From assembly GCA_963776275.1 (NCBI GenBank), contig CAVZMI010000028.1:1-64000 (forward strand): 64,000 bases of DNA, read 5' to 3'. This document shows, piece after piece, positions 32,512-45,879 of the stretch (position 1 is the stretch's first letter; the number at the start of each line of letters is the position of its first letter). Made by a program: the position numbers and the translations under genes. Below the pieces are notes generated by a model, which had not been told where the DNA came from, ran no database searches, and worked only from the letters and a program-made list of their open reading frames with translations. This DNA comes from Ignavibacteriota bacterium. GTDB taxonomy: Bacteria > Bacteroidota > Ignavibacteria > UBA10030 > CAVZMI01.

Positions 32512-32850
32512 ATGTACATCTCCAAATCAAAATATCTCTCCGGACTCCAGTGCCATAAACTTCTCTGGCACTATTATAATGCAAAAGACCTGATCCCTGA
32601 GGTCGATGCTGCAACTCAGGCTATTTTCGACCAAGGACATCTGGTGGGGGAATATGCAAAAAAGCTCTTCCCGGGCGGCGTTGAAGTCTGCAAGGGGATT
32701 TTTGATATCAAGGAAGTAATTCATAAATCAGTCCCTGCTTTAAAACTACGTAAACCTCTCTTTGAAGCAGCTTTTACATATAAAAATGCTTATGCGCGAA
32801 TGTTTCATCCGGAACAGGCAGTACAATTCACAGGCAATGAAAGAATCTGA
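32512..32850 (+). pseudogene. 5' fragment of a DUF2779-type (PD-(D/E)XK-like) protein, truncated at the island edge
   Basis: MYISKSKYLSGLQCHKLLW...FDQGHLVGEYAKKLFPGG...LFEAAF...YAR, after which similarity is lost. Family members are much longer (from memory). Confidence 0.7.
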
Positions 32851-32927: not shown

Positions 32928-33818
32928 TTACCATCGGTATCTTTTACCATCAGGCGTGAAATGATCAGGATCATGATGGGAGGAATCGGGTTCTGGTCTG
33001 CTCTGTCGGTTGTAATCTTGTCTAATCCATATTAAGCTTAAGGTAGTGTTGTATGCTTTTAGAGGGATAACTTCCTCGTAAAGAAAGCACTTACTTCCTA
33101 TAATGTAATCTTCTAGCCACGCAACACCAGCCACTGTCTCTGGTTCTGACGGTGTAGCGCCCTTGTTAAAGTAGTCGTTTGCGCAAGCAAACTCATGAAG
33201 CGGAGTTCCTTTTCCCTTTATTCGATATGGGAAGCTCGGATTAACTGCAAACCAGTTTACTTTCTCATCCTTTGAGGCTATTATTGCACAAGGTGTCTTA
33301 CCGAGTTCAACATATCTAATTGCGGTAGCAGTTAAACTTGTTTGGAATTCATCAGCGATTTTTCCGATTTCCTTCAAGCTTGGTGTCTTATTAGCACAAA
33401 AAGTTCTGAAAATGTCAGTTGGCATTAGCAATTCAACCGCAAAAGCATTCGCCTCTTGCTCCTCATCTGATTTCTTATACCATTCTAGGAAAGATAACTC
33501 GGTACAAATCTCAATAGGAGATTTCTTCCGGTGTAGACCAAAATGTCCAAGCTCGTGGGCTATGGCAAACCTCTTTTTTCCGAGTTCAGGTATTTGCTTG
33601 TTGACAGTAATGATCCCGGTTTCCCCTATGGAGACGATGCGTGCTGCTGAACTAATGTTAGGTCTTTCAATAATAATCACATTCAAATCCGCAGCTATGT
33701 CTTCTATGTTGATATCTAAAGGATGACGAATGTTCCACTTGGAAATGATAGATCGAGCATGCGCGATCGCTAGAGTATCATGCATCCGGCTTGTCATCAT
33801 GTATCTCCGATTGCTCAT
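32928..33818 (-). CDS. IrrE/ImmA-family zinc metallopeptidase
   Basis: RFAIAHELGHF (HExxH), EQEANAFAVELLMP, IADEFQTSLTATAIRY HTH, GAF-like tail. Confidence 0.92.
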   Translation of the reverse strand: MSNRRYMMTSRMHDTLAIAHARSIISKWNIRHPLDINIEDIAADLNVIIIERPNISSAARIVSIGETGIITVNKQIPELGKKRFAIAHELGHFGLHRKKSPIEICTELSFLEWYKKSDEEQEANAFAVELLMPTDIFRTFCANKTPSLKEIGKIADEFQTSLTATAIRYVELGKTPCAIIASKDEKVNWFAVNPSFPYRIKGKGTPLHEFACANDYFNKGATPSEPETVAGVAWLEDYIIGSKCFLYEEVIPLKAYNTTLSLIWIRQDYNRQSRPEPDSSHHDPDHFTPDGKRYRW

Positions 33819-34224
33819 CCTTCGTACCGAGCATTCTCAATGCCTCTACATCATTTAGAATATTTCGTAGATCATCTTCGCTGAGAGATTCTAACTTATG
33901 GAACGCAAGCTGGAGTTGTTCATCTCCAGCCGCAAGCTCTTTCAATTTCTTAAATAATGTCTCTTTTGTTTCATGACCAGTTTCCTTACTGAAGTTCACT
34001 AATGCTTCAATCATTCTTTTTCTTTTCTCACGAGCAAGGACGGTGCGTTGTTTCCGTTCAATATCTCCAATGAATTTTAATCCATCTTCGACGAGCTCAT
34101 CATAATTGTAGTCATTCTCACTTAGAATATCCTTCACCTGCTCTGGATTATTTTCAACATCGGAGTAAAGGAAATGCAACAGATGATTGATGATTATTCC
34201 GTATTTATTTTTTTCTTCTTGCAT
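33778..34224 (-). CDS. Hypothetical helical protein, candidate anti-sigma and protease substrate
   Basis: 148 aa, acidic and helical, between the sigma-like and IrrE genes; C-terminal QLAFHKLESLSEDDL. Confidence 0.7.
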   Translation of the reverse strand: MQEEKNKYGIIINHLLHFLYSDVENNPEQVKDILSENDYNYDELVEDGLKFIGDIERKQRTVLAREKRKRMIEALVNFSKETGHETKETLFKKLKELAAGDEQLQLAFHKLESLSEDDLRNILNDVEALRMLGTKDEQSEIHDDKPDA

Positions 34225-34236
34225 GTGATTTTTGTT

Positions 34237-34815
34237 TTAATTGTCTTTTCTATACTTTTCTGCCATCCTTCTTAGTCTCTTTTGTCCATTGTTGACATCC
34301 TCGACTTTAAGATTGAACAATTCGGCAATATCGGAGGGCTTATCAATACCCTCTTCAATACAAAGCAAGATGGTTTCGAGCATTTCATCGCCCTCCACAT
34401 CTTTGCGAAGATTCTCTATCAGATTCTTTGCACTTATTTCATCAAATGGAGTGAGTGTTTCTATTTGAAGATTTTCTAGTAGTTGGTCTTCATCATTATC
34501 ATTCTTTGCCTGAACATATACTCTTCGTAAGTGTTCCGAGGAGTATACAAGATGATTGATATTGCTATCCACGATGCTCTTCAAGTGTTTTAGGATGTCT
34601 GGTCGTCTCGATGGATCCCAATTTCTTCGACCCTCATATAGGGAAGCTATAGCGTCTTTTGCAATATCTTCAGGTTCAAGCCCACTGGGTGGTTTGTTAT
34701 CCGTTGACCGCCACTTAAGTTTCTTAATTTTCATAAGAGCATAGGTGACTAACGCTGGATAGATAGACTTCCAGTCCTGTGCTGCGAGCTTTTCAAAGAC
34801 ATCCGGACGAACCAA
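34237..34815 (-). CDS. ECF-sigma-factor-like protein
   Basis: Region-2-like EPEDIAKDAIASLYEGRRNWDP...LKSIVDSNINHL and region-4 HTH KPSDIAELFNLKVEDVNNGQKRLRR; TTG start. Confidence 0.75.
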   Translation of the reverse strand: MVRPDVFEKLAAQDWKSIYPALVTYALMKIKKLKWRSTDNKPPSGLEPEDIAKDAIASLYEGRRNWDPSRRPDILKHLKSIVDSNINHLVYSSEHLRRVYVQAKNDNDEDQLLENLQIETLTPFDEISAKNLIENLRKDVEGDEMLETILLCIEEGIDKPSDIAELFNLKVEDVNNGQKRLRRMAEKYRKDN

Positions 34816-34991
34816 GGTAAAGATGATCTATTAGTAATTGGTTCTATCGTCTATTGCCGACGAAAAGGTGCTTTTTGCCATCATGGCAAAAATTAAGTTT
34901 TCATCGGCATATATATGTTAGAGGCAGGATTAAATCCCTGCTCAAATTATTCAAATTTAACATTAATAACCCTAAAAAGAAAGGACTTACG

Positions 34992-35264
34992 ATGTTAGAG
35001 ACAAAGCAGCAAGAAAAACAGAAGGAAAAAGAACATCCCGTCTTTCAATACACAGTGGATGGGGAGGCACAGACTACCACAGAGCATATTCTAACACCCA
35101 TCGCAATAATGAAGAATGCTGGCGTGGATCCAAACACTCACTATCTTGTTCAAATGATAGGGAATACTAGAAAGTCATATCAGGATAATCCGAACGAAGA
35201 AATTCATATGCACAATCATATGGTCTTCTTCACGAATGCAATTGGACCGACACCTGTATCTTGA
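34992..35264 (+). CDS. Ubiquitin-like (multi-ubiquitin-type beta-grasp) protein, 90 aa
   Basis: FQYTVDGE...LTPIAIMKNAG...YLVQ...EEIHM...FFT fits a beta-grasp pattern; C-terminal tail GPTPVS; AAGGA RBS before ATG 34992. Confidence 0.8.
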   Translation: MLETKQQEKQKEKEHPVFQYTVDGEAQTTTEHILTPIAIMKNAGVDPNTHYLVQMIGNTRKSYQDNPNEEIHMHNHMVFFTNAIGPTPVS

Positions 35265-35276
35265 AGTGAGACAAAG

Positions 35277-35635
35277 ATGGCGCGGAAAGATTTCATTGAT
35301 CAGCTCCGAGCTCTCGGTTATGATCCGCAAGAGTTTGGAGACAACAAGGTTGCCTTTCTTTACACGATCCCTGTCGGCAAGTTTGGAGGAAAAGAAATTA
35401 TGCTTGGTTTCGTTGTCGGAGAGGATTTCAATTTGAATCCTCCGGGTGACCTCACATATCCCCGGAACTACTGACTCGTCAATCTGGTGGAACACATCCT
35501 TCCGGAGGAATCATTGAAAGTCCGTTTGGTGCTGGTTGGCAATATTGGAGCCGTCCATTCCATAATTGGAACAGCACCGATCGAACAGTCCGTGCGTACA
35601 TGGCTCACATCCGACACCTTTTCGATACTCAATGA
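35277..35635 (+). CDS. Prokaryotic E2-like protein (family-E type), frameshift at ~35448
   Basis: Adding one G gives 119 aa: ...FNLNPPGGPHISP...GWQYWSRPFHNWNSTDRTVRAYMAHIRHLFDTQ. Its stop overlaps the next ATG (ATGA). Confidence 0.8.
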
Positions 35636-37152
35636 CTTACAGTGTCGCCATACCTCAAAATGTACATGCTCAGGCATGTGCACACCTAATTCGAAATGAT
35701 GGGCAGGAAGATCTGTGCTTTGCCCTATGGTATCCCAGTCTGGGAAGCAATCGTAGATCTGCACTGATACAGAAACTAATCCTTCCACTTCACGGAGAAA
35801 GGTGTGTGCATGGCAATGCAAGTTTCTTGTCCGAATATTTTGAACGTGCCTTGCAGTTTGTAGTAAGTTCAAATGCTGGACTCGCTTTCATACATAGTCA
35901 CTTAAGCCCCGGCTGTCAGGGGATGAGCGGTGATGATATAAATGCTGAACAAGGTCACGCAGCTGCTGCATTCGGAATTACGGGACTACCGTTGGTGGGA
36001 CTCACAATAGGATGTGATGGTGCATGGAGTGCACGCTTCTGGGAAAGAATAGCCAACAGGAATTATCAGAAACGCTGGTGCTCTTCTGTGAGAATTGTTG
36101 GGCAACAATTGATAGTTACCTACAATGATTGTTTGATAGCTCCTCCGGCTATGCGTGAAGAACTTTCACGGACGATTTCCGCATGGGGTCAAAAAGCACA
36201 AGCACACCTCGCAAGGTTGCGTGTCGGAATTGTAGGTACGGGAAGCGTTGGAAGTATCATTGCCGAGGCGTTAGCAAGAATGGGATTATCACACATAAGC
36301 TTGATCGATTTCGATTCTGTCGAGAGAATAAACCTTGATCGGATTCTCCATGCAACAGTCGAAGACGCAGAATTGTGCAGAGCGAAGGTCCAAGTTCTTG
36401 CTGAAGCCATCAGAAGAAGTGCAACTGCTGATCCCTTTACGGTGGATGCATTAGAATATAGTATTATCGAAGAAGAAGGTTACAAAGCTGCACTCGACTG
36501 CAACGTCCTTTTTAGCTGCGTCGATAGACCATGGCCAAGATCAGTCCTTAATTTCATAGCGTATGCTCACCTCATACCCATTGTTGATGGGGGTTTGAAA
36601 ATTGAATCCAAGAAAGATGGTTCTGGTTTGAGACGAGCAGATTGGCGTGCGCACATCGCAACAATAGATCGACCTTGTCTAGAGTGTATAGGACAATACG
36701 ACGCGGGGTTGGTGTCCGCTGAAAGAGATGGTTACCTGGATGATCCAAGGTATATCGAAGAGTTCCCCGATGACCAGACAATCAAAAGAAACGAAAACGT
36801 CTTTGGATTCAGTTTGAGTGTGGCATCATTTGAAATCCTCCAGTTCCTCGCAATGATAATAGCTCCGCTGGGTCAATCAAATCCGGGCACACAGAACTAT
36901 CACTTTATTACTGCTACTCTCGACTCTGATTGGAATAAGAAATGCAATCCCAAATGTGCTTTCCTGCAATTGGTAGCACGTGGTGACCGAGCGGGTATAT
37001 CGATCACAGGCGAGCACAAGGTTGCGGAAATGAAACGAGAAGAGCGGAAGCAATTCAAGGAAATGCACAAAGCTTCGACAGATCAAGACGACGGGATTTG
37101 GAAGCGAATAAAGACAAAATGTATTCGTGCAGTACAGCGATGGCTGAGTTAA
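35632..37152 (+). CDS. JAB/MPN peptidase - ThiF/E1 adenylyltransferase fusion
   Basis: JAB: QEDLCF...FIHSH...MSGDD. E1: GIVGTGSVG, DFDSVERINLDR, SCVDRPWPR, PCLEC, CNPKC. Confidence 0.9.
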   Translation: MTYSVAIPQNVHAQACAHLIRNDGQEDLCFALWYPSLGSNRRSALIQKLILPLHGERCVHGNASFLSEYFERALQFVVSSNAGLAFIHSHLSPGCQGMSGDDINAEQGHAAAAFGITGLPLVGLTIGCDGAWSARFWERIANRNYQKRWCSSVRIVGQQLIVTYNDCLIAPPAMREELSRTISAWGQKAQAHLARLRVGIVGTGSVGSIIAEALARMGLSHISLIDFDSVERINLDRILHATVEDAELCRAKVQVLAEAIRRSATADPFTVDALEYSIIEEEGYKAALDCNVLFSCVDRPWPRSVLNFIAYAHLIPIVDGGLKIESKKDGSGLRRADWRAHIATIDRPCLECIGQYDAGLVSAERDGYLDDPRYIEEFPDDQTIKRNENVFGFSLSVASFEILQFLAMIIAPLGQSNPGTQNYHFITATLDSDWNKKCNPKCAFLQLVARGDRAGISITGEHKVAEMKREERKQFKEMHKASTDQDDGIWKRIKTKCIRAVQRWLS

Positions 37153-37538
37153 AGATGGTCAATCTCGATATGTTTGAGAGAACTTTTTAGGAAATCAACA
37201 ATCAAAGATCGGTGACAGTTGTGCACTTCCCTTTCTAAGCAAGTAAGGCATACACATGATTTGTGAAAGTCAAGATATTATCTGACATGGTTTAAATTAA
37301 CTCGATATCCTTAATAGTTGTATGTTCTCATATAAGCGATCAAGAGATTTTTCATGAGCAAGTGGAATCGTGTCGAGAAAAGTTTGCATCGGAGTTTTAT
37401 CAGAATAATACTTGCAGCTATGTAGACGTTGGGTGTTGTATTCATTCAGCAAATGATCGAGATCCACTTGGATCTTTTCTTACGAATGTGTCAAATAATA
37501 TTATAGCTATTGCAATTCAAGACAGGGACAACTTGTAA

Positions 37539-38237
37539 TCAGCAGGTCAAGATAGATTCATTCAATTCTCTACGGTATTGCTTCCATTGTGGCAGATATT
37601 GATTCATAAGAGAATAGAATCGTTCGTTATGATGACGTTCTAAAATATGAATCATTTCGTGAACAACGATATATTCTATGCAATGAAGTGGTTTTTTGGC
37701 CAATTCAAGATTAAGCCAGATTCTTCTCGCCTTGTTATTACAACTTCCCCACTTTCGTTTCATTTTTTTGATACCATATTCTGCAACTTCAACATTCATA
37801 TTTTTCGACCACTTGGAGATGTATCCAGGAACAATTTCTTTTAATCTATTTCTATACCAAGTTTCAATAATATCCCTTTTATTTTGAAGATTTGTTGTAT
37901 CTCTTACATACAATTCTATAATACTGTGTTTTAATACTACTTTGGGGACACTGGGGAGTTCAATAACTTTGAGCAAATAACGTTTACCTAGAAAATAATG
38001 GCTTTCTCTATCTTTGTATTCTCTTAGTGTTAATCGTTCCTGCCCTATAAATTTACGCTTGTGTTTTTTTATCCAAATTATTTTCGATATTGCGAATAAT
38101 CGGACAGCATCATCATTGATACGAAATGGTGCAGCAATACGAACTCTTCCTGTTGGTGGATAAACAGCGAGATGTATGTTCTTAATATCTTTGCGAACTA
38201 CATCAATGGGAATATTGCCAATAGTGATACGTTCCAT
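37539..38237 (-). CDS. YgjP/M48-like metallohydrolase linked to type I R-M
   Basis: KMKRKWGSC, IWLNLEL, YIVVHEMIH...HNERF; directly downstream of hsdR. Confidence 0.9.
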   Translation of the reverse strand: MERITIGNIPIDVVRKDIKNIHLAVYPPTGRVRIAAPFRINDDAVRLFAISKIIWIKKHKRKFIGQERLTLREYKDRESHYFLGKRYLLKVIELPSVPKVVLKHSIIELYVRDTTNLQNKRDIIETWYRNRLKEIVPGYISKWSKNMNVEVAEYGIKKMKRKWGSCNNKARRIWLNLELAKKPLHCIEYIVVHEMIHILERHHNERFYSLMNQYLPQWKQYRRELNESILTC

Positions 38238-41200
38238 TAGTATTCTCTTTGGTTCTTTACCAAATCAAATATCCTGTGAATTTCGCTTTCTTCCGAAATA
38301 CCATATTTATTCAAAACTTCCTCAATAGCTAATCTCACTTCTTTCAATTTTATTTTATGATCACGCCAAGCATCTTTTTTTGTTGTAATGATTTTCTCAT
38401 CTAATTCATTTGCCAAAGCCTCATTCTTTCCAAGGTTATCATATAGATTACGTTTGGCTGATGTGTTAAGTGATGAAGGATATGCAATTGTAGTATTTGG
38501 TTTTTTTACTTTCAGTGTTAAATCAATTATTTTCTGAAGATATTTTTCGTATTCTAAAGTGGCTTCTTTTCTCAATTCTATTAGTTCATCTAAAAGTACA
38601 CTCATTTTCTCGTAATACATCGGATTTGTCGGACTTTCTTCAATTATTACTTTCCGCAAGTTGTTTTCAATGGTTTCAGCCATTGCATCTTTATCACTTT
38701 GAATATTTTTAGGTAAACTATTGACAGCGTCTTTCCCTTTTTCAACCAATAGGTCTACCAAACTCAGATCATCAAAGTTTGCTAAGATTCGACTTTCTTC
38801 TGCACCAATGTAACTATCGATCAGATGACGCATAGCAGGTTCATATTGTTTTAAGTCAATATAATCACCACTTGCTAATTGAATTTCTTTTCGAAGGTTT
38901 TCAAAATGTTTAATCTCGTTTTTAATTTGCTCGGTTTCTTTATCTGAATATCCAGCTTCTTTCATTTCATCTGCTATGTTTGCATAAGCCCTAATGAGTG
39001 CAATGGTGAGTTTATATAAGGCAACCCGTCTTGGTTCGGTGTCCTTCAGTTCATCCGGATTTTCGGTATTTTTCCCACAAAAGTAACGAATGTATGCTAA
39101 ACTGTTCTTTGGTGGCTCCACTGGTTCGCATAAAGCCTTGATAGCTTCGAGCGCTTCATTTAATCTTTCTACACCTTTCTTTAGGCGATCTTTCAGCAAC
39201 CCTTCTACGTCAGATTTTTCATATGCATCAAAAGCACCCGAAGTGTAATCATTGAATGCATTTTTTAAACTATCGAATAAATCCATGTAGTCAATGATAT
39301 AACCGTAGTCTTTATCATCATCATCCAAACGGTTTACTCGACAGACAGCCTGAAAAAGGCCATGATCACGCATTTTTTTATCGATGTAGAGATAAGTAGC
39401 CGAGGGTGCATCAAATCCCACAAGGAGTTTGTTTACAACTACCAACAATTTCATTTGAGCTGGTTCATCTACGAATTTTTTCTTAACCTCTTTTTCAAAT
39501 TGTTCAACTTTATTAATGGCTGTCTCAGGATCTTCATTGAAATATTCTGCCAGCATTTTACGATAAATTTCAAACCGCTGTAATTTTTCGGTGTATCCTT
39601 CGCCCGTTTCTTCGCCTTTGATATCAGCATACGAAGGTACAAATGATGTAACGATAGCACAATTATTTAACCCTGCATTTTGAAACAATTCATAATAACG
39701 GCATGCATTATAAATACTATCAGAGACCAACATGGCGTTGCCTCTGCCGTTTTGTAAGCGTTCTTTTTTCTCCATATCCATCATAATATCAATCACGATT
39801 TTTTCTAAACGTGATTTAGAGCTAAACACTTTTTTGAGCGTACCCCATTTCTGTTTCAGTTCAGTTTTTGCAAGCTCGGTGAGTCCCCGGGTTTTAAGTT
39901 CAAACCATTCATCTATCTTTTCAGGAGAAGTGATATTTTGTTCAATATCCCTAGCCTCGTAGCGTAAATCCAATACAATTTTGTCGGTCACAGCCTCATC
40001 AAATTTGTAGGTATGGATGTATTTGCCAAAAACTTCCCAACTGGTTTGTTTATCAACTTTTAATAGCGGTGTTCCTGTAAAACCTATGAAAATGGCATTA
40101 GGCAAAAACCCTTTCATGGCTTCGTGTAATTTGCCCGACTGCGTGCGATGGCATTCATCTACAAATACATAGAATTCTCCCTTGGCCTTGAAATCAGATG
40201 GGATGCCGCTTTTCAATTCCTGCAAATAAGCATCTACATCGCCTTCTTCTTTTCCGCCAAACTTATGAACCAAAGAACACATTAGCCAAGGTGAATTATC
40301 ATTGAGTTTATTTAATAAATCCTTTCCGCTTTTGGTCCGATAGATTATTTCAGAAACTCCGTTGTAAACTTTCTCAATCTGTTCATCCAGTTCTTCACGA
40401 TCAGTAATGATGAGTACTCTGCCATTAGGATTGTATTCTCTTATCCATTTGGTAAGCCAAACCATTGTCAAACTCTTTCCACTCCCCTGTGTATGCCAAA
40501 TGATGCCACCTTCTCTATGTCTTAAAAACTCTTGTGCGGCTTTTACGCCAAAATATTGATTATGACGGCAAAGTTTTTTGATACCCCGGTCATATACAAT
40601 AAAGTCATGCAATAACTCAATAAAACGCTCCTTGTTGAGCAATTCTATAATATTTTTATCTAGCGGATACTTATACTTAGCTGCCTTATCGCGGATGGGT
40701 TTGGTAAGCTGCAACAAATATGCGTCGTTCTTATTAGCATCTTCGCTTACCTCTTTCCATTTTAAATAATACTTTTCTTTATTCGTATTCGGATCAATTG
40801 CTCCATAACGAATTCCTTCAGTATCGTTTCCTGCCATTACGAACTGAATAGTAGAGAAAAAGTGCTTGATGAAAATATGTTTTTGGTTGTCTAAATTCTG
40901 CCTTATTCCTTCCGATATAGAGACGGTACTTCGCTTAAGTTCTAACATGGCTATTGCAATGCCGTTAACGTAAAGCACAATGTCAGGACGTTTCTTATGA
41001 ATGCCTTTTATTGTTACTTCTTCAGCAATGGCAAAATCATTTTCATTGGGATTCTTCCAATCAATAAGCCAAACGGTTTCTTTATTCTGACCGATTTCTG
41101 GCTGCACATTTACACCATAGCGAAGCATGGAATACACTTCTTTGTTCACATCATATAATGATCTGTTCTGATCATAGACAACCTTATTGAATTCATATAA

Positions 41201-41767
41201 TGCTTTATCAATCAGATTTTCACTGTAACCTTTTCTGCTAAGCCAGGCGCTTAAATATTCTTCTTCAACATTGCTATTATTTTCTCTTTCTTCCCAATTA
41301 CCTAAATAGCGGTACTTTAGTTCGTTTTGGAATAAGGAAACCACTCGGTTCTGCGTAATCCTTTCCAATTTCCCAACATTCGATTTTGCGGATCCCTCCT
41401 GTAAGCGTTTTAATACACTTTTCTTTATCTCGGAAGCCATCATAGTATCGGGTGGTACTACAATCAAACCTTCGGCAGGAAGCATATCGTCACTGATAAT
41501 ACCTGTGTAAATATTTGCAATAACTGTATTCTTGTTTTCAAATACTCCAATGTAGTAATTTGATTCACTTACTTCGAATAAGGACCTTAAATCCATTTTG
41601 CCAACCAAGAAAATACTGGTTTCTTCTGCGTTTACTTTCTTGCCTATATAATGCTGTTTTTCATCGTCCAACAACACGAAGAGGAAATTGCTCTGACGTT
41701 CATCCTCACATAGGATGAGCGTAGGAATTTCGTAATAGTAGAGCTGTTTAATGACGTTTAATTTCAT
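38237..41767 (-). CDS. hsdR: Type I restriction endonuclease subunit R with an extra ~125-aa N-terminal domain
   Basis: RPDIVLYVNG...ELK nuclease motif, HTQGSGKS, DECHR, FTGTP, QAVCRVNR. Confidence 0.95.
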   Translation of the reverse strand: MKLNVIKQLYYYEIPTLILCEDERQSNFLFVLLDDEKQHYIGKKVNAEETSIFLVGKMDLRSLFEVSESNYYIGVFENKNTVIANIYTGIISDDMLPAEGLIVVPPDTMMASEIKKSVLKRLQEGSAKSNVGKLERITQNRVVSLFQNELKYRYLGNWEERENNSNVEEEYLSAWLSRKGYSENLIDKALYEFNKVVYDQNRSLYDVNKEVYSMLRYGVNVQPEIGQNKETVWLIDWKNPNENDFAIAEEVTIKGIHKKRPDIVLYVNGIAIAMLELKRSTVSISEGIRQNLDNQKHIFIKHFFSTIQFVMAGNDTEGIRYGAIDPNTNKEKYYLKWKEVSEDANKNDAYLLQLTKPIRDKAAKYKYPLDKNIIELLNKERFIELLHDFIVYDRGIKKLCRHNQYFGVKAAQEFLRHREGGIIWHTQGSGKSLTMVWLTKWIREYNPNGRVLIITDREELDEQIEKVYNGVSEIIYRTKSGKDLLNKLNDNSPWLMCSLVHKFGGKEEGDVDAYLQELKSGIPSDFKAKGEFYVFVDECHRTQSGKLHEAMKGFLPNAIFIGFTGTPLLKVDKQTSWEVFGKYIHTYKFDEAVTDKIVLDLRYEARDIEQNITSPEKIDEWFELKTRGLTELAKTELKQKWGTLKKVFSSKSRLEKIVIDIMMDMEKKERLQNGRGNAMLVSDSIYNACRYYELFQNAGLNNCAIVTSFVPSYADIKGEETGEGYTEKLQRFEIYRKMLAEYFNEDPETAINKVEQFEKEVKKKFVDEPAQMKLLVVVNKLLVGFDAPSATYLYIDKKMRDHGLFQAVCRVNRLDDDDKDYGYIIDYMDLFDSLKNAFNDYTSGAFDAYEKSDVEGLLKDRLKKGVERLNEALEAIKALCEPVEPPKNSLAYIRYFCGKNTENPDELKDTEPRRVALYKLTIALIRAYANIADEMKEAGYSDKETEQIKNEIKHFENLRKEIQLASGDYIDLKQYEPAMRHLIDSYIGAEESRILANFDDLSLVDLLVEKGKDAVNSLPKNIQSDKDAMAETIENNLRKVIIEESPTNPMYYEKMSVLLDELIELRKEATLEYEKYLQKIIDLTLKVKKPNTTIAYPSSLNTSAKRNLYDNLGKNEALANELDEKIITTKKDAWRDHKIKLKEVRLAIEEVLNKYGISEESEIHRIFDLVKNQREY

Positions 41768-42171
41768 GCGACCACCGATCTAACAGGCACACATTCCGGA
41801 ATAAAAGCCCGTGAACGCCACCAAGAATAATGACTTACTGCGCCTGTTTGTTTAAGAACACCATCTTTAAATTGAAGAATTAAATGACCTATTAAACGTT
41901 TTTTCTTCTTATGCGCAGGAGTCTTAAAATAGCCGTTTATTAACCCCTGCAAATTGTCTGACAAAGATATTGCATGTGCTTCACATTCGTCATGAAATAT
42001 TTCTGCGGGATATTTTGCTCTGTACGAAATAAAACATTCTGATGTAGCGGGATTATGTTTTACTACGCGGTAGTATTCTTTTGTACCATCGGGAGGAACA
42101 GCATCCTCAGGTGGACAAATCATTCCTGCTATCGCCAAATCTTCAAAATATTCTATGCTGGAGTTTGCCAT
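41764..42171 (-). CDS. Hypothetical 135-aa protein, ADP-ribosyltransferase/RES-like toxin candidate
   Basis: CPPEDA...YYR...FIS...AISL...G...HYSWW; ATGA overlap with hsdR. Confidence 0.6.
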   Translation of the reverse strand: MANSSIEYFEDLAIAGMICPPEDAVPPDGTKEYYRVVKHNPATSECFISYRAKYPAEIFHDECEAHAISLSDNLQGLINGYFKTPAHKKKKRLIGHLILQFKDGVLKQTGAVSHYSWWRSRAFIPECVPVRSVVA

Positions 42172-42172
42172 A

Positions 42173-43426
42173 TTATACTAATCGTATTTTCCCTGTCAAT
42201 AGATTTTGCATCATACCCTGCTTGAGCATTTTGTACTTCTCTAGTTTCTTTTCCAATGCCTCTATTTCGACATCCATATCTGATAATATTTGGGCAATAT
42301 GGGTTTGTTCTTGAATTAAAGGCGGCAAACTTAGTGATAACTTTTTATATTCGTTGCCATTAATACCTGGTTGTCCTGTTCTTGTTGAATTCGCTCTAAT
42401 CCAATCCCAGTACTGAGCAGTTTGAGTGTAGTACTTAAAAATGACAGGATTAAGGATTTCAGGATTAGTTTTAATGCGAATTAGAAAACCAGCAAAAACC
42501 AATTTGCCGTCATTAGGATCATACAAGTATGTTTTTCCGACACTTGCGCCAGTTCTCGCAAAAACTAAGTCACCTATTTCGAGATAATATTTTGATGAAT
42601 AAACATTGTCAATTGAAACAATATTTTGCTTAGAATATTTTCCGTCTTCCGTTATGTCGGTTATTCGCAAATAGATAGGTAATGATTCATTGTACGGGAC
42701 TGCTGCTGCATTAATCCCATAGTCAGGATTTCGGATTAGACAATCTCCCAACTTCTTTACTTTCCATACATCTTTCGGTTTTAGCAATTCCTGTAATGCA
42801 CCCCGCTTGATATCTCGCTTTTTGGCAATGAGTTTTTCTAATCCGGTGATGAGTGTCTCGACATCAGTTAAAGTGGTAGCAATAGCATTTTGTTCTTCAA
42901 AGGAGGGATATGGAATTGGACCATTTAAGATATCCCTAGTACTTATATTGGCCTGCACCCCAAGTGATGCAGAAGCTATTGAATACCTTCTCCAAGTTCT
43001 ACTATTAGAAAATGCTTTCAAAAAAACAGGGTGAATTTTCTCATTATGTATCCTAAGAAGACCAACTCGTTGATTTAGCAGTAAGGTTTTATCAGATTTC
43101 ACAATCGCCATTCGACCGATCAGATTCTTTGACGGTGTAACATCGGTCATTGCAATTATTAAATCGCCATTTTTAATTTGAAAATTCTTTAACTTTTCTA
43201 AATCATTAAATGACCAATAATTAACTTTTGTTGCATCAAATTGGAAGGAACCATCTAAACCAATTTGAGCCATTGTGACAATGGGAATTCCAATATCTTT
43301 GTATCTTTTTGATGAGAAAGCATAGCCGTTCTGAAAATTTGAAATTACATCAATAATCCTTCTTACATTCCAATCACTTGGAATAATTCCGACATCCGTT
43401 TTCTGGAATCCTTTTTCAATTTCCAT
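42173..43426 (-). CDS. hsdS: Type I R-M specificity subunit
   Basis: IPSDW, two target-recognition domains, EEQNAIA / EQTHIA helices, KQGMMQNLLTGKIRL. Confidence 0.95.
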   Translation of the reverse strand: MEIEKGFQKTDVGIIPSDWNVRRIIDVISNFQNGYAFSSKRYKDIGIPIVTMAQIGLDGSFQFDATKVNYWSFNDLEKLKNFQIKNGDLIIAMTDVTPSKNLIGRMAIVKSDKTLLLNQRVGLLRIHNEKIHPVFLKAFSNSRTWRRYSIASASLGVQANISTRDILNGPIPYPSFEEQNAIATTLTDVETLITGLEKLIAKKRDIKRGALQELLKPKDVWKVKKLGDCLIRNPDYGINAAAVPYNESLPIYLRITDITEDGKYSKQNIVSIDNVYSSKYYLEIGDLVFARTGASVGKTYLYDPNDGKLVFAGFLIRIKTNPEILNPVIFKYYTQTAQYWDWIRANSTRTGQPGINGNEYKKLSLSLPPLIQEQTHIAQILSDMDVEIEALEKKLEKYKMLKQGMMQNLLTGKIRLV

Positions 43427-43431
43427 CGGTT

Positions 43432-45879
43432 CTACCAGACAAAATTCATTTGTTTTAAGTGATTCTCTACTGTGGTGGTCAGTTCATCTACTTCACCGCT
43501 CAGTTTTGGTAGAGGTGTTTCGTAACGTTCAGCCAGTTCCTTAATACGCTGAGTTAGCCGGTGACTTATGTTATCCATTTCAGTGCGGATGCGCTGTTCC
43601 ATACTGTGCATCCATTTTTTATCTACCACAATGGTTTTTATCTCTTCAATACTCAGTACCGGGTATTTAGCAATTACTTTCTTCTCCAAATTCGACATGG
43701 CTGCCTTTATTTTAGTTTGTATTACGGATTCATCATCCATCAACTTTTTATAAGTATGCAGCATATCATATTCTTCCGCATTATCAGCATCCTTATTCCC
43801 TAACTCTTTTATAGTATCCTGTAAGTTTTTTTTGCTAATCTTCTGCTTGTCGTCTATGGCACTAAATAGTAAACCGTCTTCCCCTACATGTTCCTCCCGC
43901 AATTCAGACATTTTAATGTTAAGAGTCTCAGCTTCTGCTTCTAATGCGTCAATGCCTTTTTGCTCTTCAGTAAAATACTCTGGAATAATTAAGGTAGGCG
44001 GTATCAATCTTCCTTCAAGCCCTTCAATACCAGCTATATCTTTGCCTTCACCCTTTTCTTCTTTTTTGACTTTTCTTTTCAATCGTTTTACATCATTACC
44101 TGCCTTCCATCCATCGGCTGCCAGTTCATACATATCGTCCTGCATGGTTTCTGCCCAATAATCCATCAGGTGTTGGTACATTGAATATTTGTCGGTCAAT
44201 TGTTTGTTTGTATAATATTTCAATAAGTTTTCAGAAATAACTTGTATTTCCTTTTTTGGATGTAACCCTTTGTCCAACGCCTTGGTGTAGGATGTAGTTT
44301 CGACTTTCCATTTGGCAAACACAGCATCCATCTGTCTGCTGAAAGCGATAAACTCCGGATGCTGAAAAATAGTTTTTTTTATTTCATCCTTTGCAATTCG
44401 TAAGACAGAATAATTGGATCGTTGACTTGCCTCAAATAAGATGTTCCTCAACGATGGATACACTTTCCAATAATTGCCCAAATCATCAATATCACGAGTG
44501 GGGATATCACCCAGCAAATGAGCTTCAATATCCTGTAAGTCTTCCGCTTCCTGGCTATCAATGTATCTCGGAATGTTCAGGTTATAATCGTTTTTAGAAT
44601 CTGCAATCTCCGATATAGAAATGATTTGGGAATATTTTTCAATTTCGATTCGGTTATTGAAAGTGTCAACAATCTTATGAATGTCCTGCTCACGAAGTCG
44701 GTTTTTATTACCATCTTTGATAAAACCTTTACTCGCATCAATCATGAAAATATCTTTGCGGTTTCCGGCATCTTCTTTATCAATAACGATTAAACTAGCT
44801 GCGATGCCGGTTCCATAAAACAAGTTGGGGGGCAAACCGATAATACCTTTGATATAACCTCTTAAAATGATTTTTTTACGTATGTCGGCTTCGGCATTAC
44901 CGCGGAACAACACGCCTAAGGGCAAAACGATGCAAGCCTTGCCTTTTGATTTTATGGATTTGATTAAATGAAGAAGAAAGGCATAATCACCATTCCTTTT
45001 AGGTGGAATGTTATCATATCCTTCAAAGCGTTTGTAAATATCATTGTCGGGGTCCCAACCATTCCTCCATGACTTGTAACTGAAAGGTGGATTTGCCACA
45101 GCATAATCAAATTGTTCTAACTCTCCTGTTGTATCATTAGTAAATTCGGGCTTGGCTAATGTATTACCTTGCCTGATATCCGAGGTAGGGTTTCCATGTA
45201 GCCACATATTCATCACTGCCAAAGCTCGGGTGGCATTGTCATTTTCCTGTCCGTATATAGTAATACTGTAAGGTGCTTCGTTTGCTGCTTTCAACAGCAA
45301 CGAACCCGACCCGCACGTAGGATCATAAATTGTTTCCGATTGTCTTTTAGATTTTTCAATGCTAATCACCTTGGCCATGACGCGAGAAACCTCGGCAGGT
45401 GTATAGAATTGACCTTTACTTTTGCCGCTCTCAGTCGCAAAGTTTCGCATTAGATATTCATAGGCATCACCAAGAAGATCATCTCCCTCTGCGCGGTTAC
45501 TACTGAAATCCAATTCAGGCTTTTCAAATATTTCTATAAGGTTACTGAGTTTATCAACCTTGTCTTTCCCCTTCCCAAGTTTTTCATCATCGTTAAAATC
45601 TGCAACAGTTATTACACCAGTCAGTCCGTTAGCTTTTGCAAGTTCTCCAATAATCTTATTGATCTTATCTCCAATATCTGACTGTCCTTTAAGATTAACC
45701 ATATCTTTGAAACTGCCGCCTTCGGGAATTTCAACCAATGCTCCGCCCTTGTCGGATACGTATTTCATAAACAATAAAACCAATACATAATCTTTGTATT
45801 GGCTTGCATCCATGCTACCACGTAATTCATCACAACTTGCCCATAATGAGCTATAGAGTTCAGATTTCTTGATTGCCAT
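43432..45879 (-). CDS. hsdM: Type I R-M methyltransferase subunit (N6-adenine)
   Basis: GQFYTP, YDPTCGSG, ANPPF, GVLFRG, NLFYGT. Confidence 0.96.
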   Translation of the reverse strand: MAIKKSELYSSLWASCDELRGSMDASQYKDYVLVLLFMKYVSDKGGALVEIPEGGSFKDMVNLKGQSDIGDKINKIIGELAKANGLTGVITVADFNDDEKLGKGKDKVDKLSNLIEIFEKPELDFSSNRAEGDDLLGDAYEYLMRNFATESGKSKGQFYTPAEVSRVMAKVISIEKSKRQSETIYDPTCGSGSLLLKAANEAPYSITIYGQENDNATRALAVMNMWLHGNPTSDIRQGNTLAKPEFTNDTTGELEQFDYAVANPPFSYKSWRNGWDPDNDIYKRFEGYDNIPPKRNGDYAFLLHLIKSIKSKGKACIVLPLGVLFRGNAEADIRKKIILRGYIKGIIGLPPNLFYGTGIAASLIVIDKEDAGNRKDIFMIDASKGFIKDGNKNRLREQDIHKIVDTFNNRIEIEKYSQIISISEIADSKNDYNLNIPRYIDSQEAEDLQDIEAHLLGDIPTRDIDDLGNYWKVYPSLRNILFEASQRSNYSVLRIAKDEIKKTIFQHPEFIAFSRQMDAVFAKWKVETTSYTKALDKGLHPKKEIQVISENLLKYYTNKQLTDKYSMYQHLMDYWAETMQDDMYELAADGWKAGNDVKRLKRKVKKEEKGEGKDIAGIEGLEGRLIPPTLIIPEYFTEEQKGIDALEAEAETLNIKMSELREEHVGEDGLLFSAIDDKQKISKKNLQDTIKELGNKDADNAEEYDMLHTYKKLMDDESVIQTKIKAAMSNLEKKVIAKYPVLSIEEIKTIVVDKKWMHSMEQRIRTEMDNISHRLTQRIKELAERYETPLPKLSGEVDELTTTVENHLKQMNFVW

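Follow-up and report, generated by a model that had tools for sequence, protein, structure and literature searches.

A sigma-containing form of the CapH+CapP regulators

Three adjacent minus-strand genes of an Ignavibacteriota bacterium (phylum Bacteroidota, assembly GCA_963776275.1) encode a sigma70-family protein, a small helical protein, and a CapP-type protease, and we conclude that this trio is a real, widespread, and uncharacterised form of the CapH+CapP regulators of bacterial immune operons. The trio lies in the window analysed here, the first 64,000 nucleotides (nt) of contig CAVZMI010000028.1, where it stands upstream of, and divergent from, an operon for a ubiquitin-like (Ubl) protein, the arrangement also seen for CapH+CapP. 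We regard it as probable that the trio is a sigma-based variant of this DNA-damage-responsive regulator and works by the mechanism proposed below, in which CapP would act on an anti-sigma factor.

The gene for the 192-amino-acid (aa) sigma-like protein (34237-34815, minus strand) is followed after 12 nt by that for a 148-aa helical protein, the proposed anti-sigma factor (33778-34224, minus strand), which overlaps the open reading frame (ORF) of the 296-aa protease (32928-33818, minus strand) by 41 nt. A divergent spacer of 176 bp (34816-34991) separates the sigma-like gene from the Ubl start codon at 34992. A first-pass annotation of this DNA had described this layout, with the overlap of the last two genes and the 176-bp back-to-back gap, and each ORF that it named in the trio and the Ubl operon was found where it had been placed.

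The sigma-like protein and the protease

The 192-aa protein had been annotated as an extracytoplasmic function (ECF)-like sigma factor, and this call holds at the level of the family and of the predicted fold, the single sequence staying below the thresholds of the domain databases. A profile built from 10 trio-linked homologs matched sigma-H of Fusobacterium (Protein Data Bank (PDB) 3mzy) at 2.1e-7, with SigH and SigW scoring more weakly. An AlphaFold model (predicted local distance difference test score, pLDDT, 76) consists of two helical domains and a low-confidence or disordered linker at residues 106-127. In fold alignments with VIA the model matched region 4 of 3mzy (Z 10.7, root-mean-square deviation (rmsd) 1.7 A over 70 residues), region 4 of sigmaE on -35 DNA (2h27, Z 9.1), and region 2 of the NepR-bound RpoE (5uxx, Z 7.4, rmsd 3.9 A over 82 residues). 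Sigma2 and sigma4 are thus both represented, joined by a short linker and without sigma1.1 or sigma3, which is the ECF-like architecture. At three other CapP loci (L098, L099, L102) the upstream gene reaches the Pfam cut-offs for Sigma70_r2/r4, and the sigma-like family aligned with one such Pfam-supported sigma factor by hhalign at E 9.7e-5 over 171 columns (probability 58%). Profile and model together place the 192-aa protein in the sigma70 family.

The product of 32928-33818 matched the PADLOC capP profile at 1.1e-57 over positions 8-241 of 242 and Pfam Peptidase_M78 at 1e-15, and it carries an HExxH motif in the form HELGH. By these matches it is a full-length CapP-type zinc metallopeptidase of the IrrE/ImmA (M78) family, with the GAF-like domain assigned from the span of the capP profile. 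Two further partial M78/capP matches occur in the same genome (G000:C20:38844-39239, 1.1e-19; G000:C36:2377-2808, 3.7e-15).

What such a protease does to its partner is described for Escherichia coli CapH, which CapP cuts between F82 and R83 to leave a product starting RGYKNL, R83 being required (Lau et al. 2022, bioRxiv 10.1101/2022.04.27.489752). The oligomerisation domain at the C terminus is a V of two helices, with the cut in the first of them, and according to that preprint cleavage in this domain is the route by which CapH is inactivated. A 2026 preprint on CapP predicts a contact between the helix-turn-helix (HTH) domain of CapH and the GAF domain of CapP.

The middle protein carries a CapH-type cut site

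Searches of Pfam with the 148-aa protein returned no family and no HTH family, and PADLOC capH matched it weakly (E 2.8e-5). While word-index searches with the single sequences of the sigma-like and 148-aa proteins found one relative each, a 9-sequence HMMER profile of the middle protein gathered 625 cluster representatives at E<=1e-3, of which 135 remain at E<=1e-10; 149 of the 150 members listed are 100-170 aa long. This family of ~130-aa proteins, 625 cluster representatives strong, currently has no Pfam model.

A model of the 148-aa protein from a 112-sequence alignment (pLDDT 83.6) is all-helical, with six predicted helices at residues 2-24, 27-36, 41-82, 87-98, 102-113, and 116-143, and the 42-residue third helix occupies the place where an HTH would lie. 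Fold searches with this model (Foldseek against the PDB, and a wide VIA search) gave nothing above Z 6.1 and only likenesses of long helices, a result that does not by itself exclude an HTH. All pointers are nonetheless towards the absence of an HTH, and the middle protein has none that is detectable, in agreement with the first-pass remark that no HTH repressor was visible in the trio.

The most conserved stretch of the family is [FY]-[RH]-[KN]-L-[ED]-x-L, in the first helix of the terminal pair. Of 150 members, 143 have F or Y at position 108, 118 have R or H at 109, 141 have K or N at 110, 129 have L at 111, and 125 have E or D at 112. In the window this stretch reads F108-H-K-L-E-S-L114 (codons at 33883-33903, minus strand), and the predicted CapP cut is F108/H109. 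The Phe-basic site resembling that of CapH, which had been pointed out near the C-terminal QLAF-HKL, is therefore a conserved motif of the family. The likeness between the C terminus (helices 102-113 and 116-143) and the two-helix cut domain of CapH is at the level of this motif.

A direct comparison is provided by L078, a classical CapH with an XRE-type HTH, found in the same phylum. It reads ...HDQLYRNIGNLTAEDREF... after its HTH, and the cut-site motif of the 148-aa protein aligns to its LYRNIGNLTAED. In an hhalign comparison of the middle family with this CapH, only the C-terminal piece aligned, with the family consensus qFrkLekL.eed. In our reading, the 148-aa protein combines the cut-site module of CapH with an N-terminal domain of another kind. 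The top PDB row for the family was a lysozyme with CW_7-type repeats (5i8l, 2.8e-4), which we set aside as a short-motif likeness to the N-terminal 'L..aG.D' turn; six copies of this motif occur in a 938-aa protein (P0066).

A predicted sigma/anti-sigma complex

Modeling of the sigma-like and 148-aa proteins together had been suggested as a check on their pairing, and the predicted complex passes it with an ipSAE of 0.77 against 0.39 for the best control. Of 80 solved complexes, 58 reach the calibration mark for this score, as do 2 of 110 mismatched pairs. The model runs have at least 85% of their contacts in common, and the partner has a pLDDT of at least 68.

In the model, residues 6-67 of the 148-aa protein touch both domains of the sigma-like protein. 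On the sigma2 side they contact residues 1-61, 75, and 79, including helix 48-60, the predicted equivalent of region 2.1/2.2. On the sigma4 side they contact residues 124-185, including the last helix (175-185), which we take to be the recognition helix. The conserved L34 of the 148-aa protein lies within this predicted interface, and the cut-site region 100-148 lies outside it. The anti-sigma factors RseA, RsiW, and MucA insert between sigma2 and sigma4, and the predicted interface is anti-sigma-like in this respect; entries of these three systems were also among the VIA fold matches of the 192-aa model.

The trio is conserved and is the usual setting of CapP in the phylum

In 48 of 48 loci of one middle-protein subfamily, all from Bacteroidota, the sigma-like, ~130-aa, and CapP genes occur in the same order and on the same strand, with the sigma-family ORF directly upstream of the middle gene and the CapP ORF directly downstream in every one of them (the latter cut by a contig end in two). 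Because the gene order is the same in all 48, the arrangement is not a matter of chance. Such a neighborhood search for the trio beside defense operons had been suggested in the first-pass annotation, and most of the loci have antiviral cargo.

A less biased view comes from a sample of 401 genomes of the phylum, 138 of which hold an M78/capP match at E<=1e-10. We surveyed the partners of the 30 best CapP loci in this sample. Both the sigma and the middle-family partner were present in 15, this window included; a further 6 had a protein with Pfam Sigma70_r2/r4 upstream, and 7 had the same layout with partners that the searches did not resolve (a protein of 212-242 aa and then one of ~115 aa). 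A classical XRE-HTH CapH accompanied CapP at a single locus, and one locus was cut by a contig end. These counts indicate that the best CapP loci of the phylum as a rule have a sigma partner and only exceptionally an HTH partner. The sigma-like sequence as a query matched 12 of the 401 genomes; of its places in other genomes, 7 of 12 are full trios, 1 lies beside a 544-aa M78 protein, and 4 lack a nearby CapP.

A second layout was seen at L074-L077, L081-L083, L095, L096, L098, L099, L102, and L103, where a 212-360-aa protein and a ~115-aa protein precede CapP. The large protein has Pfam Sigma70_r2/r4 in 6 of the 8 tested, the ~115-aa protein bears the motif WL.S.GF.FPR.E.EL.RFE.LY, and some of these loci adjoin multiubiquitin-like or DUF1508-like first genes. 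This layout may be a parallel sigma/anti-sigma/CapP family. Downstream of CapP, several trios (L061-L073) adjoin genes for ParB_N/HTH_ParB, DUF932, and integrase proteins, which suggests that the trio is carried on integrative or conjugative elements.

Most of the 48 loci have a divergent gene upstream of the trio, and we sorted the operons that face away from the sigma gene by cargo class. Eleven encode a cyclic-oligonucleotide-based antiphage signaling system (CBASS) cyclase with a Cap2-like E1/E2, a JAB protein, and DUF6602; 13 encode a Pycsar cyclase with PycTM, mostly accompanied by an E2; 5 encode a patatin CBASS; 6 a two-transmembrane (2TM) CBASS; 6 a 416-aa protein of no known kind; and 7 are of other kinds or cut off. 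CBASS, Pycsar, Bil-like, or Bub-like cargo thus makes up most of the loci. In 19 loci the first divergent gene, before the CBASS genes, encodes a ~104-aa DUF3892 protein (Pfam 6.1e-11); DUF3892-first loci are L034, L040-L042, L044-L058, and L060 (cluster c3). Genomes of the phylum sample add a Bil-like Ubl/DUF7665/JAB/E1 operon (G287), a patatin CBASS (G095), and, as judged by eye, a multiubiquitin-like first gene (G020). Since the trio recurs beside so many antiviral operons, it probably serves as a portable switch that turns immune genes on. A conserved 57-aa ORF (MAKNPPTGDNARKGAV...FKGVRKEK), smaller than the 70-aa gene cut-off used, is also divergent from the trio in many loci (the L023:149-322 region of L085; L026-L033; L074:3357-3530).

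A symmetric element in the divergent spacer travels with the trio

Inverted-repeat analysis of the window spacer revealed a two-fold symmetric element of 55 bp (34855-34909), a candidate divergent promoter pair for which an operator is the rival assignment. Its 27-nt arms (34855-34881 on the plus strand and 34883-34909 on the minus strand) are 81% complementary, and each reads TGCCGA-N14-TTGCCAT. Related loci have ATGCY-N16-TTGCCAT on both strands, the TTGCCAT elements facing one another, with half-sites at fixed positions 42-45 and 31-34 nt from the sigma start. In the form ATGCY-N16-T[TA][GTA]CC[AG][TC] the half-site is present in 46 of the 48 loci and on both strands in 30. Its 84 matches all fall in the 260 nt that precede the sigma gene, and the other 827,275 bases contain none, a count that shows specificity and not probability, since the motif was derived from the same regions and many of the loci are kin.

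The spacer element belongs to the trio and not to the cargo. Variants of its outer part (AATGCT, ATGCTC, TATGCT, and ATGCC in the window) track the lineage of the trio, so that one cargo class is found with differing variants and one variant with differing cargoes. Two distant relatives, L018 and L019, show by eye the same architecture in other sequences. At L026-L038 the spacers hold extra single or tandem half-sites (ATGCTCA-N16-TT[GT]CCAT) in one orientation, 120-180 nt upstream of the sigma gene, with a 57-nt tandem duplication of the half-site at L037 and L038.

Two different elements ~17 bp apart are what a sigma2/sigma4 pair would be expected to read, and two opposed copies would be the expected look of a divergent, autoregulated promoter pair. 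Both orientations of the half-site give canonical spacing; we lean slightly towards the inner element as the -35, since the extra upstream copies in the Arenibacter-type loci point there. A scan of the window spacer for sigma70-type promoters found 0 sites, and its lone terminator-like match is the center of the palindrome. In the window genome TGCCGA-N14-TTGCCAT has 3 exact copies, of which two make up the palindrome and are the only exact copies that occur as a pair; the spacer of the third is rich in G+C. Allowing one mismatch gave 15 matches in this genome versus 4 for the reversed control, and no regulon emerged.

The consensus of the -7 motif of housekeeping promoters in Bacteroidota is TAnnTTTG. 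In 41 trio spacers (5,226 nt) there is no copy of this motif; the 332 other spacers of the same loci (43,613 nt) hold 101.

The cargo operon in the window and its neighborhood

The operon opposite the trio is Bub-like and in this genome looks damaged and is probably crippled, with all three regulator genes intact. The Ubl gene (34992-35264, plus strand; 90 aa from its ATG) is BubA-like. Its product had no Pfam match but matched the Ubl of the Arenibacter locus L037 by phmmer at 2.9e-7, and the latter matches Pfam Multi_ubiq at 3.9e-13. The last gene (35632-37152, plus strand) is a BubCD-like fusion of JAB and E1 domains; the best solved relative of this 528-aa ORF is Citrobacter BubCD (9ea4, E 1.3e-25, query residues 7-331), Pfam ThiF matches at 5.7e-25, and a JAMM-like motif, HSH...S..D, is readable. 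Between them the E2-like gene shifts frame between 35447 and 35450. Residues 1-57 of the intact 119-aa E2 of L037 (L037:17659-18018) align by tblastn in one window frame and residues 58-119 in another (E 6e-12). The N-terminal piece (35277-35447, plus strand) continues in its frame to a stop at 35472-35474, and the C-terminal piece (35450-35635, plus strand; PHISPE...WQYWSRPF...) ends in a stop that overlaps the BubCD start (ATGA). Neither piece contains a cysteine. The first-pass annotation, which described a Ubl-E2-JAB/E1 operon, had missed this frame change, the lack of BubE, and the transposase-like remnant described below.

These features raise the alternative, compatible with a working regulator, that the locus is a decaying defense island in which the switch no longer has a functioning pathway and the cargo is dead. 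All Bub operons have bubE, the gene of a DUF6527 serine protease, as stated in the Bub operon study (PMC11601596), and a search for PF20137 (DUF6527/BubE) found no match in the window genome, which is 96.4% complete, although the control genome matched. There is no BubE gene at 37153-37538, after the E1 gene, where it would be expected; instead the stop-to-stop ORF list gives a ~60-aa remnant at 37297-37479 (minus strand) that resembles by eye the C terminus of a transposase. A truncated-looking 112-aa ORF at 32512-32850, together with the frame break, would also fit decay. On the other hand, the reading frames of the trio, the Ubl gene, and BubCD are uninterrupted and of full length, the frame break in E2 may be an assembly error, and Arenibacter L037 likewise has no ORF in the 890 nt after its E1 gene, so that the lack of BubE may be normal for the subtype. 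We consider decay of the locus rather doubtful.

Beyond the Ubl operon lie a YgjP-like metallopeptidase gene (Pfam 1.7e-58), which directly adjoins the locus within 37539-45879, and a type I restriction-modification cluster (38237-45879) with an 1176-aa HsdR-like ORF and others of 135, 417, and 815 aa. With these neighbors the locus in the window forms a defense island. No tRNA genes were found in the window, and no Rfam family matched between 32500 and 37600 at E<=1.

Proposed mechanism and alternatives

The mechanism that we infer begins with a small two-domain alternative sigma factor (sigma2 + sigma4), which the 148-aa protein would keep inactive by means of its N-terminal ~67 residues, wedged between sigma2 and sigma4. 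Its two C-terminal helices would form a CapH-like module with the CapP cut site F108/H109. By analogy with CapP and IrrE, the protease would be activated by single-stranded DNA arising from DNA damage or infection and would cut at this site, so that the sigma-binding fragment would end in a new hydrophobic C terminus, ...EQLQLAF. This fragment would then be lost, probably, though this step is speculative, through housekeeping proteases as for CalpT and RseA. The freed sigma factor would direct RNA polymerase to two divergent bipartite promoters in the spacer, one feeding back on the trio and the other reading the Ubl/E2/BubCD operon. The first-pass proposal of an anti-sigma factor cut near QLAF/HKL to free a dedicated sigma factor is thus partly supported. 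It agreed with each computational test made, namely the synteny, the conservation of the site, the presence of the motif in a classical HTH CapH, the complex model, and the cis-motif.

Several results weigh against this mechanism. The predicted cut at residue 108 falls outside the predicted sigma interface (6-67), so that cleavage alone would not free the sigma factor and a second, degron step would be needed, which we borrow from CalpT and RseA. As a single sequence, the 192-aa protein reaches E 0.0033 with NCBIfam sigma70-ECF (17 bits, cut-off 42.9) and E 0.12 with Pfam Sigma70_r2, under the curated cut-off, and the top Foldseek rows for its model, although all sigma factors, have E>=0.017. 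The PADLOC capH model may itself include sequences of the middle-protein type, the hhalign probability between the middle family and classical CapH is just 3.5%, and PDB sequence searches with the middle family and with the last 54 residues returned no CapH or anti-sigma chain. The complex score may profit from solved sigma/anti-sigma complexes, and our own alignments were used. The 48 loci come from a single subfamily (a 14-row alignment, pattern I[KR]DQNL[LI][ED][IL]) and are a biased sample, and the half-site motif was derived from the regions in which it was counted, many of them in closely related loci. A two-fold symmetric element is also the typical look of an operator. Finally, the window spacer does hold one TAnnTTTG (TAAATTTG), at ~34953-34960 on the minus strand, reading towards the trio; it may be a housekeeping-type promoter for basal expression of the regulator.

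Some of these points suit a different account, in which the trio is a repressor split over two proteins. Here the HTH of sigma4 would bind DNA and the CapH-like tail of the 148-aa protein would oligomerise, both on the symmetric element, and cleavage by CapP would break the oligomer and derepress a housekeeping-sigma promoter, following the logic of CapH and DdrO. The operator-like symmetry of the spacer element would fit, as would the fact that CapH, DdrO, and ImmR, the characterised relatives, are all repressors; the C-terminal domain of CapH oligomerises and is inactivated by cleavage there, and a cut outside the sigma interface is more simply explained by lost oligomerisation than by lost binding. 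However, the half-sites hold two different elements 16 nt apart (ATGCY and TTGCCAT), in -35/-10 geometry, instead of repeated HTH sites, and housekeeping TAnnTTTG motifs are missing from all 41 trio spacers counted above. The complex model buries the last helix of sigma4 (175-185) along with sigma2 helix 48-60, so that the predicted complex would not bind DNA through sigma4, and a full sigma2 domain is kept throughout the sigma-like family. A split repressor is for these reasons improbable in our view.

Least probable of all is that the trio holds an ordinary sigma/anti-sigma pair while CapP cuts another target (the sigma factor, a cargo protein, or an unlinked HTH repressor) or uses the 148-aa protein as an adaptor to the sigma factor: the 148-aa protein does lack direct similarity to solved CapH chains and the HTH domain predicted to contact the GAF domain in CapH, and in some loci sigma lies directly beside CapP or the CapP domain is within a 544-aa fusion, but the very stretch of the middle protein that is best conserved is a CapH-type [FY]-[RH] site with an amphipathic helix behind it, this stretch aligns with the post-HTH region of a classical CapH of the same phylum, and the middle gene always abuts or overlaps capP.

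Relation to known systems

The sigma-release reading has its closest relatives in CapH+CapP. The protease is of the same family, with a full-length capP match; the position is likewise upstream of, and divergent from, CBASS, Pycsar, Bil, or Bub operons; and the substrate-like protein ends in a predicted two-helix module with an aromatic/basic site comparable to F82/R83. In contrast to CapH, the middle protein lacks a detectable HTH, and its predicted binding partner is a sigma factor and not DNA; control would be positive, by release of sigma, and not derepression. For the form with a sigma factor, Lau et al. 2022 offer no mechanism. IrrE (PprI)/DdrO of Deinococcus and ImmA/ImmR of mobile elements also pair an M78 protease, activated after DNA damage, with a partner that is cut in its C-terminal dimerisation region, but that partner is an XRE-HTH repressor and there is no sigma factor.

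In the RseA/sigmaE pair, the anti-sigma factor sits between sigma2 and sigma4, and cleavage exposes a degron (VAA) that lets ClpXP finish the protein. RseA is a membrane-bound protein that DegS and RseP cut on envelope stress, whereas all parts of the trio look cytoplasmic.

The first-pass annotation knew of no case in which this switch logic had been characterised, but there is one. In CalpL-CalpT-CalpS of type III CRISPR, a three-part system of protease, anti-sigma factor, and ECF-like sigma factor in antiviral defense, the protease cuts the anti-sigma factor at a site that lies beyond the sigma interface; the cut exposes PETLQLAA as a C-terminal degron, cellular proteases then remove the fragment, and RseA is cited there as working like CalpT (bioRxiv 10.1101/2024.05.08.593097). 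The predicted fragment end of the trio, ...EQLQLAF, is comparable. The CalpL protease is a SAVED-Lon protein activated by cyclic tetraadenylate (cA4), whereas that of the trio is of the M78/capP kind, and the targets of CalpS are not an adjacent immune operon. At most the trio works like CalpL-CalpT-CalpS and is not a member of that system, the two being likened by description and not by sequence. The same source describes the Craspase (TPR-CHAT)-Csx30-CASP-sigma system of type III-E CRISPR, in which a protease cuts its partner and sigma is released in antiviral signaling; this protease is caspase-like and is activated by target RNA on a Cas effector, and the protein families are unrelated to those of the trio (bioRxiv 10.1101/2024.05.08.593097).

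Nor was the gene combination unseen: the 2022 study of CapH and CapP noted capH and capP beside a sigma70-family sigma factor in 24 CBASS systems and also found them flanking 6e ubiquitin-like operons (bioRxiv 10.1101/2022.04.27.489752), and CapH+CapP adjoin 168 of 544 Bub operons (PMC11601596). Compared with type I Bub (6E.1) as described in the latter study, where the E2 works with serine in place of cysteine, the window operon shares the BubCD-like JAB-E1 fusion, a Multi_ubiq-related Ubl, and cysteine-less E2 pieces; it differs in having Ubl and E2 as separate genes with no BubAB fusion, in its frame-broken E2, and in that no DUF6527/BubE was found in the genome. Beyond the sentence in Lau et al. 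2022, we found no characterised sigma-containing CapP system in the literature, although the closed supplementary tables (those of Lau et al. and Table S1 of the Bub study) may list such loci; the word 'sigma' does not occur in the 2026 CapP preprint. Three points we did not find in print, namely that the 'CapH' of sigma-containing systems has no HTH that is detectable and is an anti-sigma candidate, that a promoter-like element is linked to the trio, and that sigma partners predominate for CapP in Bacteroidota.

Implications

We see about an even chance that a wider reading is correct, in which CapP-type proteases that sense ssDNA would in Bacteroidota act mainly through dedicated sigma/anti-sigma pairs instead of repressors, and the trio with its promoters would be a portable positive-control cassette, complete in itself. 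Such a cassette could be placed before any immune operon, whether CBASS, Pycsar, Bil, Bub, DUF3892, or others, and would make its expression dependent on DNA damage and independent of the housekeeping promoter code of the host. On the same reading, the cut-site module of CapH would serve as a 'protease handle' that can pass from one protein to another and has been joined in evolution to an HTH in some cases and to an anti-sigma domain in others.

If the proposed mechanism is true, the trio would be a fourth route from DNA damage to the expression of immune operons, after CapW/BrxR, CapH+CapP, and CapK+CapS, and the first of these with positive control by a private sigma factor. It would explain the role of the 'sigma70-family sigma factor' of the 24 CBASS systems reported in 2022, and it would mean that the CapP cut-site module is portable between HTH and anti-sigma domains. 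Three genes and a 55-bp element would then be a candidate orthogonal, damage-inducible switch for Bacteroidota, whose promoters are unlike those of E. coli.

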